Shown here: positions 1 through 6,000 of the stretch, piece by piece | Layout: each line of letters begins with the position of its first letter | How positions within the stretch are numbered: position 1 is the first letter of the stretch | DNA from: Bdellovibrionota bacterium | GTDB lineage: Bacteria > Bdellovibrionota_C > UBA2361 > JBGSMV01 | Reading direction: 5' to 3' | NCBI GenBank assembly: GCA_041739995.1 | Contig: JBGSMV010000034.1 | Location: forward strand, 1-62,826 | DNA length: 62,826 nucleotides | Made by a program: the position numbers

Positions 1-3000
1 AGCTACTCTCAAACCCATCAAACTTCGGAAGCAACTTCGCTCCCAGTTAAGACAGGTGCTTAAGCATGCTTCGGTAACATCCAATTACGAGGCTTCAGAT
101 CAAGGCTCCTTCGGTAACACCTAATTGTGAGGCTCTCCGTGCCTAGGTCTATCCTATTGAAAACGTAACGGTTTGCTAGGGCACCTGAACCACTATTTGA
201 GAAACGGCGCCTCTATCATCCGTAGCGCGAAGCCGAAGCGTTTCGACGTCCTCCCCGATGTCGGGAGTCGGTAGCGGACTACCTGTTTGCGGGTCTCTGC
301 ATGCGTGCGATGAATTGAACCGAAGTAGGTCATATGAGGGTGCGTTGATTACGATCATCCCTCGCTTTCCAGGCTCCTGTTGTTGTAGCCACTGCGCAGC
401 AAGATTGATCGCGTTCTGATCTGATGGGTCGTACACAAAACGGTACATGGGAGTAATGTATTGGTGCTCAGCGGAGCCAGGGCTCCAGCCGAAGGCCAGT
501 AGTGGGTCTCGTGCCTGTACTCCGCCTTCGTTGGTATCAGATGGGGTTGCGCATCCCAGATCGTCGGGACAGTCGACAAAACTATCGGCATCGTTATCGA
601 GGCCGTCTGCGCACTGAGGCTGTGGGTTTGCATAGGTTGGAGTTACTGAAGGCGTCGGAGTGCGCGTGCTTGTTGCCGTCCCGGTGGCAGTTCTTGTTGG
701 CGTGCGCGAGGGGGTTGCTGCGCCAGAAGTTCGCTTATCCTGTTACGGGCGCGAGTTTCAACGCGGTGTGGAAATTCGTTCTAAATGTCGCTGATCCTCG
801 CCTGCAGTAAGTGGATCTCCGCGCTCCATTCTAAGGGAAGCGACTTGTTCTGCGACCATGCCTAACATAAACACAATCACCGCTGAGTTAATCATGAGGT
901 GCGACATGTTGGTGAACTGCCCGAGGGTGAAATAGGTGTAGGCATAGCGCATCAGCCCGAGAAAAAACAAAAATGAACTCATCGGCATGAAGATCCTAAG
1001 CGGAGAGAAGGTCATTGCAATCTTCATTATAATTATCAGAAATTCAAAACCGTCCGAAACCAAGCGAATCTTACTTTTGCCAATGCGGTGACGGGTCTGA
1101 ATCGGAATATAGGCCAGCGAGCGGCCTGAGCGAAGAAAGGCGAGAGTAATGGTTGTCGGGTAAGAAAAACCGTTTGGCAGCATGTCGCAAAAGCGCAGCG
1201 CGTCGCGGCGACGAATGGCGCGAAAGCCGCTGGTAAGATCCTGAACCTTAAAGCTCGCCACGAATGAAGCGAGCTTGTTGTAGACGTAATTGGCGAGATC
1301 TCGATGTAGGTGAGTGTCAGATCCCTTCGAGCGCGCGCCTACTACCATGTGATATTGTCCGATCAGAGCGAGAAGTCTGGGAATGTCAGCGGGCTCGTGC
1401 TGCCCGTCCCCATCCATAAATACCAAAACTTTACCGCGGCTCTCGCGAATGCCTGTTTTGACCGCTGCGCCGTTGCCAATGTTATAGGGGTGACGAATTA
1501 CTCGTGCGCCTGCGGCCTCAGCGACCGAAGCGGTGTCATCCGAGCTCCCGTCATCAATCACGATAATCTCCGAGTTCTCAAAGGGCAGTCTCTTCAAGCG
1601 AGCTATGGTGTCACCGATAGCGCCTGCTTCATTGAAGGCAGGAATGATAATTGAGACATCGATCGAACTAGAGTCGGAAGTGTTCATGGTCCTCGCTACC
1701 TTTGCTTCCCGCCATGTTCCCAGGCCGATGGTGGTATGGCAAGGCATTGCGCTGGTCTGTCCGAGCTCCTGAAAGAAGCTGCGTTCTGATGGCGATGGTG
1801 CAACTATTGTGCACCGTAGTCGCCAAATATGATCCTTGAAAATTTAAGTTCGACGCAAGTTTGGAAGCACAGGCCCTATGGTCAAGGGTAAACCCAAAAA
1901 TCCCTGCACGAGGGCAGGAGAACGGCTTCTCGGGGACATTGAATGAAGCCGAGGACGGAGCGCGGTAAAATCGGAGTGATGTTTCTGATGGTCCTCGCCT
2001 GTGGGGAATGTGCCGGCGTAGCCGGGTAGTGCCGCGTGGTGGATTCGGGGAGAGCAGCTACTTAGGCCGGGAGGCGCGGCTTTTCTCAGGCGAGCAGCCT
2101 CCTGCTTGAGCGCAGATGCGAGGTAAGGGCTCAAAACCCATGGACATTTCTAACCGCAAAATACCACTAGATATATTAAATAACTCTGAGATAAGCTTAA
2201 TTATAGCAGTTTTTAAGTTTATTTATAGCCTATTTACCTTTAATACGAGGACGTATGACGACTTCGCCTGATTCCCCTGTAGCCCTTCGACAGTTTCTGG
2301 AGATCCCCTATGACGAGCTCGAAGAGTTGAATTTGCAGGCGAAGGAGAGACAGCTCTCAAGGCGGAACCTCGCGGAGCACCGAGACCACTATGTGAAATA
2401 TCTTTCGGAAGAAAAGCGCTTAAAGGCGGTGACGGTAGGGTTTACCGATCTCGAGGGGCGCTTTCACATGCTGGACTACGACAAGAAATTTCTGTTGAAG
2501 TCCTACGACAATCTTACCTTCGATGGATCCTCTGTACGCGGCTTTTCAGTAGTTCGAGAATCCGATCTGCGATTGGAGCTTGATTGGGGAAGTTTCCGGT
2601 GGTTGCCGTCTGATGTTTTTGGTCCCGGAAAAGTACTGGTGTTCGGGCTTATTCGATCTCAGGACGGAACAAGTTACTCTTCTGATATGCGCGGGCGTCT
2701 CAAGACGTTCCTTGAGGAGCTTCATCAGAAAGATAGCACCACCGCGAACATCGCAGTCGAATGCGAAGGCTTCTTGTTCGAGGGACTGAATGCAGAGCAA
2801 GAGTTCTCCGAAGCAAATCAATTCAAGCTTGTGTCCTCGGGAGGTTACTATCACAGCCTTCCACGCGACCGGCTAAAACTTTTCATTGATGCACTCGCGG
2901 AGGCGCAGCGCGCGCTCGGCTTTGAAAACGAAAAAGATCATCCAGAAGTAGCGCCCTCTCAGTTTGAACTGAATTATAAGTACACCGATGCACTGCTCGC

Positions 3001-6000
3001 AGCCGATCAAATTCAACTCTACAAGCTCACGGCAAGGCAGATTGCTGCAAACATGGGTCTTACAGCGTCGTTTTTGCCTAAGCCTATCGCGGGAATTAAT
3101 GGCAGTGGAATGCATGTGAATTTGTCTTTGACGAAGGCGGGGAAAAATCAGTTCTGGGATCCGAAAGGCGAAGACAAGCTCTCTGAGCCTGCTTGGAATT
3201 TTGTCGACAGGCTCTTGAACAACGCTAACGATATTTGTCTCGTGCTCAATTCGAGCGTTAACGCTTATCGCAGACTAGATCCGCACTTTGAGGCACCTAA
3301 TCAGATAAAGGCTTCCGCAGTGGATCGCACCTCTATGGTACGAATTCCTCTTGGGAACGAGCAGTCTGCCCGAGTCGAGGTGCGTACGGTCGCTCCGGAC
3401 GCGAATCCCTATATGGCGCTGCTATGTATTCTTGGTACGGGCTTGAACGGGCCCATGACTGAGGCGCTGAATTCAGAGAATCGCAGAACGAGAACCAGGT
3501 TCTTGCCTGGGAATATCCACGATGCGCTTCGACTTATGAAGGGAAGTACTTTCATAGCCGAGCTTCTGGGTGAGGAGAATAAGGAGAAGTTTCTTGAGCG
3601 TAAGAGCTTCTCTGCAGACCGTTGCCCCAAGGAATTGGGAAATGCAGTGAAGGTGAGCGAAGTCATCTTTCACCATGATGTAACTAATCAATATCTGCTC
3701 TCGAAGTTTTAGCTCAGCTCTTTAGTGGGAGGCAGGGTAGGGCGGTCGGCACGAGAAGTCGCCCCGCCTACCCAGAACGCATTTCGCTGTCGGCTTTTGA
3801 AAAAGTCAGATTTTGCTTCGAAATCTTACCACAGCTCTGTAAAGTTAGGACGTCTTTGATGTATCTCTCACCTGCCTTTGTGGGGCGTATTCCTAGGAGT
3901 TCGTGTGGTAAAGCGACCAGCTACTTTCTATTTCGCTGCTGACCTGTTTAGCAGTCGTGCGCTCTTTGGAAATGCAGCACTTGCTGATGCCATTCAGCGC
4001 GCGAGCGGAACGAGTGAGCGCTATGAATTCAAAGTAATTCTCCCGCAACTTTGTGAACCAAGAACTGAGTCCGCCAGGGCAATTCGAAACGCAGATATTC
4101 GCTCGGTGGTGCAGGCTGATGCGGCTGTGTTCGTGTTCGATGGTATGGAGCTTGATAGTGGAATGATCGCTGAGTTCATGGTCGCTAAATTCTGTGATAT
4201 TCCGTCAGTTATATTGAGAACAGATTTTCGTAGTTGCGGCGAGCACCCAGAATGCCCTTGGAATGTGATGCTCGGATTCTATCCGCGTTGCTCTGTGGTG
4301 CAGCTCAACTCAATGAAAGAATATAAAGACCTGATCGCAGCTCAAGGGGAGGGTCGGGTATCTGCCCGCAACAGAGATGCGGCGCGTGACTCCATAGAGG
4401 CGCTTCAGACTTTCATGGATTCGATTGGAGCTTCGGTGGCGCAAGCGCTGGATAAAGTGATGCGCATACCTGCAACCATGCCTGAAGAATTGCGGGAGCC
4501 AGTCTATCAATGGGTTCGTCAGTTTCCTGGAGCGGAGTTTGATGCGGAACTCTCGGCGGAGGATATTTCAGAAGTTATTAAGCGACGATTCGAGGCTAAA
4601 TGAGTAGCGTAGTTGTCGTCGGTAGTTTTGTTCAAGACCTCGCCTTTATTACGTCGCAGTTCCCTCGCCCCGGAGAAACCCGTATCGGTAAGTTCGTTAC
4701 GGGTCCAGGCGGAAAGGGCTTTAACCAGGCAGTGGCGTGTCATCGCTTAGGCGCTGCTACGCTGTTTCTTGGTGCCGTAGGCGAGGATCTTTTTGCTCAT
4801 ACCATTCGGTCATTTTCTAAAGCTGAAGAACTTCCTATTGCGCTTGAAGTACATCCGCTTCTGCAGTCTGGAGCTGCTTCGATTGTGGTGAACGCCGAAG
4901 GTCTTAATTTGATAGTCGTAGCACTTGGTGCGAATGCGGCGCTTTCTACTGAGTTCATTCACGCGCAGGGAGCGGCTTTCGAGAAAGCTCGCGTAGTGGT
5001 CTGTCAGCTCGAGTGCAACCTGGCTGCGACTGCGTGCGCGCTTGAGTTGGGACGAGAAGCAGGCGCCAAGACGATTTTAAACCCAGCGCCGATCAATGAC
5101 AGTCTTTCTAGGGACCTTTTTGATAATGTCGATATCCTTGTGCCGAATGAAAGCGAGGCAGAGTACCTGTTGAGGCGCTTTTTTAATATTGAACTGGGCA
5201 AAGACCTTGTGACGCATTCTGATGCTGAGCTGGGAGATCTTTGCTCTAAAATGCAGGTACCGTGCGTGGTGCTGACGCTCGGCGCTCAAGGGGCGTTTCT
5301 TTTTCAAAAGGAGAGTGGTCGCTATCAACGATTTCCTGCTGCTCAAGTGAATCCGATGGACACGACCGGTGCCGGTGATTCTTTCACAGGAGCGCTCGCT
5401 GCGGGGCTTGTTCGCTTCAAAAACTCAGTTTCCGACGCAGTCGGTTTTGCGGTGCGCGCGTCCGGTCTTTCGACCGAGAAGCAAGGAACAGCGCCGTCCA
5501 TGCCAGTGCTTGCCGAAGTGTTGCAAAGATTCCCAGCCTGAGTCGGGGCGCCTGAGAGTCAGAGTCTAGGGCGCTCAATGCTGTTAATTCGCAGGGCGCT
5601 CAATGCTGTTGATTCGCCGGGCGCTCAATGCTGATGATTCGCCGGGCGCTCAATATCGATGATTCGATCGTAGCGATCATGAAACAGTGCGGACGAAATA
5701 ATAAAATCCGCGGTGCTTCGATTCATTGCCACCGGAATATTGTAGAGCACCGCAATTCGTAAGAGTGCCCTTACGTCAGGATCGTGCGGCTGGGCAGTCA
5801 GGGGATCCCAGAAGAAGAACATCGCATCTATTTCGCCTTCTACTATACGCGCGCCGATCTGCTGATCGCCTCCGAGAGGTCCGGAGATAAATCGTTGGAT
5901 GTGGAGTCCTGAACGTTCCGCAATTACCTTTCCAGTTGTTCCCGTAGCGAAAAGCGAGTGCTCCTGCAAAGTGCCCTTATTGAAGAGCACCCATTCGAGC

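Follow-up and report, generated by a model that had tools for sequence, protein, structure and literature searches.

Absence of PII signalling and of the ammonium-assimilation module alongside a divergent glutamine synthetase in a Bdellovibrionota bacterium

The window analysed here is a stretch of 62,826 nucleotides from contig JBGSMV010000034.1 of a Bdellovibrionota bacterium (genome G000). A glutamine-synthetase-family gene for a protein of 485 aa occupies positions 2255..3712 on the forward strand; its product matches the Pfam domains Gln-synt_C (249 bits) and Gln-synt_N (35 bits) and is the only PF00120 match in the genome. The region upstream (2135..2254, forward strand) was read as AT-rich and contained no known RNA element in Rfam. 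The sigma-54 −24/−12 consensus TGGCACN5TTGCW, with up to two mismatches allowed, had no forward-strand match between 1748 and 2254, and its matches across the whole window were as many as chance would give. On the reverse strand lies a three-gene cluster that begins with the catabolic, ammonium-releasing aspartate ammonia-lyase AspA (38388..39836; TIGR00839, 687.9 bits against a cut-off of 681.2; Pfam Lyase_1 and FumaraseC_C). Directly downstream is a DcuA/DcuB-type C4-dicarboxylate/aspartate transporter (36906..38357; DcuA_DcuB, 449 bits; TIGR00770, 488.7 against 331), and the third gene encodes an outer-membrane porin of the OprD family (35520..36896; Pfam OprD, 113.6 bits).

An earlier survey had called the glutamine synthetase (GS) a type-I enzyme. 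Its Pfam domains and catalytic motifs agree with that assignment, but it scores only 265.8 bits with the NCBIfam GlnA equivalog model TIGR00653, below the curated cut-off of 429.15. The closest solved relatives are chains of 7tf6, 4lnf and 8tfb (E 1e-66 to 5e-69); with 8oow included, the matches range from 1e-56 to 5e-69 and span residues ~47-455. The motifs ECEGFLF, HPEVAPSQFE, NGSGMH, AYRRL..FEAP and RVEVR are conserved relative to 7tf6_A, and we take the E-x-E strand, the E..E of 'EVAP', NGSGMH, the flap R and E, and the R-x-E-x-R strand to serve in metal and substrate binding. The protein carries ~45 extra residues at the N-terminus and ~30 at the C-terminus, with two deletions after the 'GLNG' segment. 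In the alignment, the segment of the adenylylation loop is deleted even relative to GSI-alpha, and no Tyr is found there. An adenylylation-controlled GSI-beta identity was considered and rejected, as the Tyr segment is deleted and GlnE (PF03710) has no match in the genome. By its sequence, the enzyme is a divergent, GSI-alpha-like GS without an adenylylation loop. Its subfamily shows 59-78% identity across the 80 loci kept, and its records are labelled with many phyla, including Acidobacteriota, Gemmatimonadota, Armatimonadota and Patescibacteria. NCBI names these relatives only 'glutamine synthetase family protein', and GS activity is putative. The subfamily also occurs in PII-less genomes elsewhere (23 of 44 genomes of other phyla without PII over the cut-off).

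The G000 assembly comprises 3.81 Mb in 81 contigs, at 91.26% completeness and 2.4% contamination. Six-frame searches with Pfam profiles at E<=10 gave no match to Amt (PF00909), GlnD_UR_UTase (PF08335) or GlnE, and a single PII-family match (PF00543), which lay inside GyrB and, at 16.1 bits, did not reach the 25-bit cut-off. The large subunit of glutamate synthase (GOGAT; PF01645) had no match at E<=1e-5, and tblastn with the phylum's own GlnK, SbtB-like (eight PII and PII-like), SbtA and Amt proteins gave a best E of 0.3. The claim that G000 lacks PII, GlnD, GlnE and Amt was confirmed in this way, within the limits of a 91%-complete genome; none of the absences is proven individually, because the assembly is incomplete and in 81 contigs. 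With neither Amt nor glutamate synthase, the GS-GOGAT assimilation cycle is missing from G000.

Sigma-54 is encoded in G000, as the survey had stated (208 bits, all three domains). The reported number of 13 sigma-54 activators was not reproduced: Sigma54_activat had 11 matches at E<=1e-5, and all but one scored at least 133 bits. The best of these 10 reached 444.5 bits with the NtrC equivalog TIGR01818, whose cut-off is 558.6, and the sole activator-adjacent kinase scored best to AtoS/ZraS, far under their cut-offs, so that no NtrB-type kinase was recognised. The phosphotransferase system (PTS) was tested with four families, HPr (PF00381), the EI N-domain (PEP-utilisers_N, PF05524), EIIA_2 (PF00359) and Hpr_kinase_C (PF07475); each of the four had no six-frame match at E<=10, which upholds the reported lack of HPr, EI, EIIA-Ntr and HprK. 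In E. coli, the gene order is rpoN-hpf-ptsN-rapZ-npr. The rpoN operon of G000, on a 171-kb contig, reads ABC-ATPase, rpoN, hpf, rapZ and metK; only 35 bp separate hpf and rapZ, with no ptsN between them and no npr or hprK beyond rapZ, and the 370-nt rpoN-hpf spacer holds only one low-complexity frame of 93 codons without a family match. This intact but empty site is positive evidence that the PTS-Ntr genes, at least, did not merely escape assembly.

That the missing genes sit in the ~9% of G000 that was not assembled or binned is a thought encouraged by the completeness estimate, the fragmentation into 81 contigs and the HPr of the sister species G067, which was borne out at 67 bits. At least five unlinked loci (PII/amt, GOGAT, glnD, glnE and PTS genes) would all have to have been missed, however, and the same gaps recur in family and order relatives that are 92-99% complete. 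The HPr gene of G067 lies within a ~14-kb stretch that has no tblastn counterpart in G000, where the flanking genes map mid-contig on contig C36. The weak PII match reported for G067 does correspond to a PF00543-positive gene, but one that is SbtB-like rather than canonical. Canonical PII is absent from the family of G000 (f1, G064-G067); Amt is missing from G065, G066 and G067 (92-93% complete), and GOGAT from G067. Together with the empty rpoN-operon site, this makes an assembly artefact highly improbable. We conclude that canonical PII, GlnD, GlnE, a recognisable NtrBC pair and PTS/PTS-Ntr are truly missing from G000.

We then extended the PII count to 124 genomes of the phylum, of which 73 reach 90% completeness or more with contamination of 5% or less. 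At E<=1e-3, PF00543 was matched in 23 of the 124 genomes, in 21 of them over the cut-off; the high-quality set gave 13 of 73, where the earlier survey had counted 7 of 41. The gap is a trait of the lineage, as that survey had stated, and does not stem from a faulty assembly of G000. That genes can be detected in these MAGs is shown by GS, which was found in 107/124 genomes and 69/73 of the high-quality ones. Canonical GlnK is rarer still, occurring in 7 of 124 genomes, always beside amt, and in a single genome among the 91 of G000's order, because most PF00543 matches in the phylum are not GlnB/GlnK. Canonical PII is described as having a long T-loop with conserved Gln39 and Lys58 and a B-loop TGxxGDGKI (PMC4316997). 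These features are kept in the amt-linked genes of G005, G027, G028, G031, G033 (two copies) and G114, and the amt-linked PII of G030 has the variant B-loop GAPGDGMIF. In 14 genomes, a PF00543-positive, SbtB-like protein of ~100 aa is encoded directly behind an Sbt_1 transporter; all 14 are without the TGxxGDGKI motif and have a T-loop deletion of ~8 residues. Other PF00543 neighbours were an RND pump and NhaB, in one case each. Annotators should thus read most PF00543 matches in this phylum as SbtB-like transporter partners, not as nitrogen regulators. GlnD and GlnE domains gave nothing beyond weak matches in the 124 genomes, and none even in the PII-bearing ones.

Among the 14 controls, PII was present in 13, Sulfolobus being the sole exception, and HPr in 7, both as first counted. 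GlnD and GlnE each exceeded the cut-off in only 3 of the 14; their absence from G000 stands, but it carries little weight because they are rare in controls too. The same reservation applies to the PTS: it is missing in G000, and HPr is rare in the phylum (7/124 genomes, 5/73 high-quality, in line with the earlier 4/41), but 7 of 14 controls lack HPr as well. The description of PII as near-universal fails in the MAG-rich phyla sampled, where PII was found in 8/131 genomes over the cut-off (the sister phylum that holds an Oligoflexus-labelled MAG), 66/121 (a Myxococcaceae-labelled phylum) and 22/50 (a further MAG sample, in which all 11 Patescibacteria-labelled genomes were without PII). Our literature search found no description of PII scarcity for Bdellovibrionota-type phyla; Bdellovibrio itself was not in the comparison set.

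The reported lack of an ammonium transporter holds for G000 and fails as a trait of the phylum, since 64 of 124 genomes retain Amt; a strong GOGAT match was found in 38. Our tally gives 24 genomes without canonical PII that have Amt, GS and a large frame of the GltB type, among them G011 (5.1 Mb, 3 contigs, 95% complete). In two of the 24, amt is interrupted: in G021 it lies next to glnA and is split into two frames, and in G034 it is fragmented and broken by a TAG, and this is gene decay in progress. The signalling function might persist without the family, 2-oxoglutarate and glutamine being sensed instead by a PII-like protein too divergent for PF00543, by an unrelated regulator or by GS itself. 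The 24 genomes favour such a replacement, as does the sister phylum, in which Amt is present in 58/131 against PII in 8/131; uncontrolled ammonium uptake is costly, as established for AmtB-GlnK (PMC11001197). The GS of the phylum also forms a subfamily of its own, highly conserved and extended at both termini, and its solved relatives include archaeal entries that respond directly to 2-oxoglutarate. The GS of Bacillus is still paired with GlnK-AmtB and GlnR/TnrA. Nevertheless, PF00543 revealed no such protein in G000, although the search was sensitive enough to pick up SbtB-like proteins at 22-39 bits in relatives, and the 17 orphan amt loci inspected had no conserved neighbour in common. We regard functional replacement as a minor possibility.

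Another possibility is that these systems went without any specific link to a nitrogen-rich diet, in a general reduction of the genome such as obligate intracellular bacteria undergo, in a lineage that is parasitic or depends on a host. PII, PTS and GGDEF are missing together (GGDEF was found in only 11/124 genomes, which bears out the reported loss of the c-di-GMP network in the phylum), and some genomes measure 1.2-2 Mb. G000, however, has 3.8 Mb, encodes several flagellins as well as numerous transporters, and keeps sigma-54 with 10 activators, and phylum genomes of up to 5.3 Mb are still without PII (G010, G011), which renders this explanation unlikely.

The enzyme inventory of G000 points to amino-acid catabolism. 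Besides the aspA-dcu cluster, the genome encodes a large NAD-glutamate dehydrogenase (Bac_GDH_CD, 718 bits; 1512-aa ORF) and an ELFV dehydrogenase of 358 aa, a Leu/Phe/Trp-type amino-acid dehydrogenase. Bac_GDH_CD was found in 104/124 phylum genomes against 1/14 controls; the large dehydrogenase and a GS of the G000 type are near-universal in the phylum, where canonical PII reaches only 7/124. This distribution may have arisen by repeated losses or by a single early loss followed by re-acquisition. We consider it probable that G000 leads a nitrogen-replete, amino-acid catabolic life with a PII-independent GS. Nitrogen would enter as amino acids or peptides and leave as ammonium through the ~1500-aa NAD-glutamate dehydrogenase, the aspartase with its Dcu transporter and porin, and the Leu/Phe/Trp-type dehydrogenase. 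With neither Amt nor glutamate synthase, little would remain for PII or PTS modules to control. The single GS would serve only to supply glutamine for biosynthesis, governed by product feedback and perhaps a sigma-70 promoter, and a cell replete by diet would have no need for a 2-oxoglutarate/glutamine sensor. For G000 itself, the outcome would be an ordinary one: the module for ammonium assimilation lost coherently by a bacterium that catabolises amino acids. The diet argument does not extend to the whole phylum, given the genomes that keep Amt and GOGAT; the 24 with Amt, GS and GOGAT require an explanation other than that nothing is left to regulate.

Usual teaching has PII integrate carbon, nitrogen and energy status universally, and treats AmtB and GlnK as partners of ancient origin that are hardly ever separated. 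Two whole uncultured phyla are mostly without PII, with Amt retained by about half of their members, which corrects the picture from cultured model organisms. It is conceivable, if rather doubtful, that both of these related lineages, that of G000 (in its 24 genomes with Amt, GS and GOGAT) and that of the Oligoflexus-labelled MAG, take up and assimilate ammonium without any PII protein. Amt would then be gated and GS tuned independently of PII, most likely because the conserved GS subfamily of ~480 aa senses effectors directly or because a regulator not yet recognised is at work. Such genomes may offer natural 'PII-null' backgrounds for studying Amt and GS control, and the widespread GS subfamily is a candidate for self-contained regulation.

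Compared with known systems, G000 shares with the proteobacterial nitrogen cascade (GlnD - GlnB/GlnK - GlnE/NtrBC - GSI-beta; AmtB-GlnK) sigma-54 and activators of NtrC architecture (receiver, AAA+, HTH_8), and lacks GlnB/K, GlnD, GlnE and Amt. Its GS differs from proteobacterial GSI-beta in having no adenylylation loop and no sigma-54 promoter match upstream of its gene. With the GSI-alpha enzymes of Firmicutes and archaea (7tf6, 4lnf, 8tfb, 8oow), it has in common the catalytic motifs and the lack of an adenylylation site, and is set apart from them by its score below the GlnA cut-off, extra termini, two deletions and separate subfamily. Relative to the PTS-Ntr rpoN operon in its E. coli order, ptsN and npr are not at the G000 site, and HPr, EIIA-2, the EI N-domain and HprK are nowhere in the assembly, whereas the lptB-like ABC ATPase, rpoN, hpf and rapZ are retained in the same order. 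The SbtB-like genes behind Sbt_1 in 14 phylum genomes resemble the cyanobacterial SbtA-SbtB pair of bicarbonate transporter and PII-like regulator, although the lineage is non-phototrophic, the pair is missing in G000 and the role of the phylum protein is putative. The proteobacterial AmtB-GlnK system has its counterpart in seven genomes of the phylum, which have an amt-glnK pair with full T-loop and B-loop.

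In the genome of Bdellovibrionota bacterium GCA_041739995.1 (G000; a 3.81-Mb assembly of 81 contigs with 91.26% completeness and 2.4% contamination), the survey's finding that PII (GlnB/GlnK), GlnD, GlnE, the ammonium transporter Amt and the phosphotransferase system (PTS) are missing was confirmed, with no real match in six-frame HMM searches at E<=10. The same profiles were run on 14 control genomes. None of the following profiles matched G000: Amt (matched in 14/14 controls), PEP-utilisers_N (12/14, 7 over cut-off), Hpr_kinase_C (11/14, 3 over cut-off), HPr (8/14, 7 over cut-off), GlnD_UR_UTase (8/14, 3 over cut-off), PTS_EIIA_2 (7/14) and GlnE (4/14, 3 over cut-off). 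P-II, matched in 13/14 controls, gave one 16-bit match in G000, which falls within GyrB. GlnK, SbtB-like, SbtA and Amt proteins taken from the phylum itself reached a best E of 0.3 against G000 in tblastn searches, and glutamate synthase (GOGAT, PF01645), detected in 14/14 controls, was absent from G000 at E<=1e-5. The standard GlnK-AmtB/GlnD model and the PII-defining motifs are described in PMC11001197 and PMC4316997, respectively. Sigma-54, its activators and a glutamine synthetase (GS), which the survey had listed as retained, were all found. Sigma-54 has its three domains complete, and Sigma54_activat gave 11 matches at E<=1e-5, all but one of which are strong. Seven of the 10 strong ones have a receiver-AAA-HTH layout (HTH_8 is unmatched in one of the seven), an eighth is a PilS-like membrane/PAS fusion adjoining a T2SS-F gene, and two lack a recognised N-terminal domain. 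No strong activator reached the equivalog score for NtrC (best 444.5 vs 558.6 bits), and the sole kinase adjoining one of them looks AtoS/ZraS-like.

Such absences in a draft genome could reflect an assembly gap, and several observations bear on this. Many proteobacteria, E. coli among them, carry ptsN/npr-type genes at the rpoN operon site. The rpoN operon of G000 is located within a 171-kb contig (C32, about 81428-87110; locus L120, 1429-7111) in the order lptB-like ABC-ATPase, rpoN, hpf, RapZ (286.7 bits vs a cut-off of 244) and MetK; ptsN, npr and hprK are absent from it, and hpf and rapZ are spaced by 35 bp. The 370-nt rpoN-hpf spacer contains only one 93-codon frame, low-complexity and rich in Ser, Arg and Gly; this frame was rejected as a hidden NPr on account of its composition and the lack of any family at E<=0.01, and is probably non-coding. 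RapZ is a gene kept in G000 though its usual PTS-Ntr neighbours are gone, with metK directly after it. Close relatives in the same family (G065, G066 and G067; 92-93% complete) also lack Amt and canonical PII, and G067, the sister species, lacks GOGAT as well. The survey had cautioned that G067 gives a weak PII match and an HPr match. That PII match (39 bits) belongs to a gene that immediately follows an Sbt_1 transporter (376 bits), an SbtB-type context; the HPr is a lone 99-aa gene with a HAD hydrolase on one side and an AMP-binding enzyme on the other, and it sits in a stretch of about 14 kb in which no ORF has a close counterpart in G000, and the genes flanking this stretch map inside G000 contig C36. 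The empty rpoN-operon site, the like relatives and the explained G067 matches argue against an assembly gap in G000.

Across the phylum set of 124 genomes, all of one class, 91 (G000 counted) belong to the order of G000 and 73 are of high quality (>=90% complete, <=5% contaminated). GS was found in 107/124 genomes (69/73 of high quality), and nearly all matches are of one type of about 250 bits with frame lengths of about 480-520 aa; their detection serves as a positive control for searches in the phylum's MAGs. The PII family was detected in 23/124 genomes at E<=1e-3 and in 21/124 over cut-off (13/73 of high quality), HPr in 7/124 (5/73), and the GlnD/GlnE UTase domain in 7/124 (4/73), always at 20-44 bits and never in a PII-bearing phylum genome. 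GOGAT was present in 52/124 genomes at E<=1e-5 (31/73) and in 38/124 at E<=2e-40, about 33 of the strong matches lying in frames of at least 839 aa. Amt was present in 64/124 (41/73), so the survey was wrong in so far as its Amt absence was extended to the phylum. GGDEF, found in 8/14 controls, is absent from G000 and present in 11/124 phylum genomes (6/73), which, for a search covering the GGDEF domain alone, means that the phylum almost entirely lacks c-di-GMP synthesis.

Sorting the 23 PII-family genomes by gene context and motifs separated three kinds of gene. Canonical GlnK occurs in seven genomes (G005, G027, G028, G030, G031, G033 with two copies, and G114), where matches of 87-101 bits each have a same-strand Amt gene no more than about 600 nt away and carry a full T-loop and a TGxxGDGKI B-loop, the latter variant in G030. 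Canonical PII is therefore found in 7/124 genomes, in 4/73 of high quality, and in 1/91 in the order of G000 vs 6/33 outside it, which bears out the survey's view that the lack of PII is a trait of the lineage. Six of the eight copies are alike, with 117-118 residues from the aligned start, a T-loop 'RGCG' and '...AIGP' near the C-terminus; the G027 reading frame starts further upstream than the aligned start. Relatives of the G114 GlnK elsewhere are abundant (68-83% identity), and the few that are named come from Planctomycetota families (Gemmataceae, Pirellulaceae) at about 71%, which, judged by eye, is about as close as the other copies in the phylum are; either retention or import of the amt-glnK operons would be compatible with this. 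Fourteen genomes (G015, G041, G045, G060, G061, G062, G064, G067, G073, G083, G097, G117, G122 and G123) have instead an SbtB-like protein of about 100 aa directly behind an Sbt_1 transporter (loci L009-L013, L100, L101, L103-L105 and L107-L110), in which the T-loop is shortened and the B-loop motif is lacking. Pairs of an SbtA-type transporter and a PII-like gene thus occur in a non-phototrophic phylum, and a DUF6671 gene comes next after the pair in G060 and G061. Of the remaining two genes, that of G113 has an RND pump on one side and a P-type ATPase on the other, and that of G026 lies behind NhaB.

Twenty-four phylum genomes, tallied from the match tables, combine Amt and GS with a large GOGAT frame but lack canonical PII; one of them, G011 (5.1 Mb in 3 contigs, 95% complete), has two Amt genes. 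Two others have an interrupted amt, and the gene is decaying in both: that of G021 falls into frames of 314 and 144 aa directly upstream of the GS gene (locus L138, contig C47, 2874-5664), and that of G034 (contig C403) is fragmented and broken by a TAG. No PII neighbour or conserved partner was seen beside orphan amt at the 17 loci inspected, where neighbours differ. An unassigned ORF of about 500-530 aa without a Pfam family adjoins orphan amt in four genomes of different families (L121, 4434-5996; L122, 4450-6048; L123, 4447-5937; L133, 1070-2668), and may encode a partner not recognised so far, such as a porin.

Other lineages were sampled without filtering for completeness. PII over cut-off was found in 8 and Amt in 58 of the 131 genomes in the phylum of an Oligoflexus-labelled MAG, with clear amt-glnK pairs in three. 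In the phylum of a Myxococcaceae-labelled MAG, PII was found in 66/121 sampled genomes, and among genomes carrying the GS subfamily of G000 it was over cut-off in 22/50, or 21/44 after removal of six probably belonging to G000's own phylum; the Patescibacteria-labelled genomes of this last sample had none (0/11). PII absence in uncultured lineages is thus clearly less exceptional than the 13/14 of the controls implies, and the survey's description of PII as near-universal was overstated. Near-total PII absence reaches beyond the phylum of G000 to at least one neighbour phylum. Searches of full-text literature, which did not take in subscription-journal reviews of PII distribution, gave no report that Bdellovibrionota-type lineages have lost PII, Amt or the PTS, and the name 'Bdellovibrionota_C' occurs there only in MAG or community catalogues. 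Amt without PII across two phyla may be regarded as a modestly novel point.

The GS gene (2255..3712, + strand; 485 aa; Pfam Gln-synt_C 249 bits, Gln-synt_N 35 bits) is the only PF00120 match in G000. It scores 265.8 bits against the NCBIfam GlnA equivalog, well below the cut-off of 429.15, and its close relatives are labelled by NCBI 'glutamine synthetase family protein' with no more specific name. The nearest solved structures are GS chains 7tf6, 9y4a, 7tdv, 4lnf and 8tfb (E 1e-66 to 5e-69, residues about 47-455), leaving about 45 N-terminal and 30 C-terminal residues outside the alignment; with the GSI-beta entries 1f1h and 2gls, alignment is confined to the core (E about 1e-36). Alignment to a solved GS chain showed that the catalytic motifs are retained and that the segment that follows 'GLNG' is shortened by 9 and 4 residues. 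The closest solved relatives, the kept motifs and the shortened, Tyr-free stretch together mark the protein, on its sequence, as a GSI-alpha-like enzyme that GlnE would not be able to control. It is conserved over its full length at 59-78% identity across 80 loci retained out of 564 confirmed matches, from MAGs labelled Bdellovibrionota or Oligoflexia and many other phyla, including by label Acidobacteriota, Gemmatimonadota, Armatimonadota, Chloroflexus and Patescibacteria. Patescibacteria-labelled MAGs of 0.7-1.4 Mb carry the same subfamily of about 480 aa at 60-63% identity (L044, L054, L055, L057, L060, L063, L074, L078, L081, L094 and L097), a conservation unexpectedly high given such reduced genomes. 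A pattern search gave no sigma-54 promoter 5' of the GS gene, and its 33 matches across the whole window vs a shuffle mean of 33.7 correspond to chance. Rfam gave no riboswitch or other RNA element above threshold there, only a chance-level lncRNA match (E 0.27).

Elsewhere in the window, a type III polyketide synthase with chalcone/stilbene synthase domains, an FAD-dependent monooxygenase and a methyltransferase lie in a row (26645-29582, - strand), a small secondary-metabolite or lipid-modifying cluster. There are also two DUF6502 paralogues (17726-18559 and 58194-59024), a DUF1800/DUF1501 gene pair (20445-24000) and a flagellin-like gene (48368-49708, - strand). A further DUF1800 gene adjoins a sigma-54 activator on contig C64 (locus L144). 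G000 has at least five flagellin-like genes, in the window and on contigs C10, C54, C68 and C81, with tandem copies on C81; their identity to the flagellin of the sister species is only 38-48%.

G000 encodes three routes that release ammonium from amino acids. An NAD-glutamate dehydrogenase (GDH) of 1512 aa on contig C36 matches Bac_GDH_CD at 718 bits, a family present in 104/124 phylum genomes vs 1/14 controls. In the window, an aspartase (AspA; TIGR00839, 687.9 bits vs a cut-off of 681.2), a Dcu transporter and an OprD porin follow one another (35520-39836, - strand); the row looks like a compact aspartate-catabolism unit with a transporter of the C4-dicarboxylate/aspartate type. The third is an ELFV-type amino-acid dehydrogenase of 358 aa, whose top NCBIfam likeness, far under cut-off, is tryptophan dehydrogenase. 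In the region of C36 at 163650-173960 (loci L119 and L143), about 1.1 kb separates the GDH gene from a five-gene group. This group includes two sigma-54 activators, one of them of the receiver type, together with a TPR protein and a small histidine kinase, and it may form a unit that regulates amino-acid catabolism. With Amt, GOGAT, PII and GlnE all absent and the synthetase GSI-alpha-like, G000 has no GS-GOGAT cycle to regulate. From this enzyme inventory we infer a nitrogen-replete cell fed by amino acids or peptides, in which GS would only supply glutamine under feedback restraint, so that PII signalling would be dispensable. Lifestyle would then account for the pattern in G000 coherently and in a rather unremarkable way. 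An amino-acid diet fits G000 and its family well but does not account for the roughly two dozen relatives with a full assimilation pathway and no PII; in these, PII-independent control is a possibility, exerted through the GS subfamily itself or another factor. In GSI-beta enzymes, the adenylylated tyrosine lies in the stretch past 'GLNG', whereas in the G000 synthetase this stretch is shortened and the tyrosine is absent.
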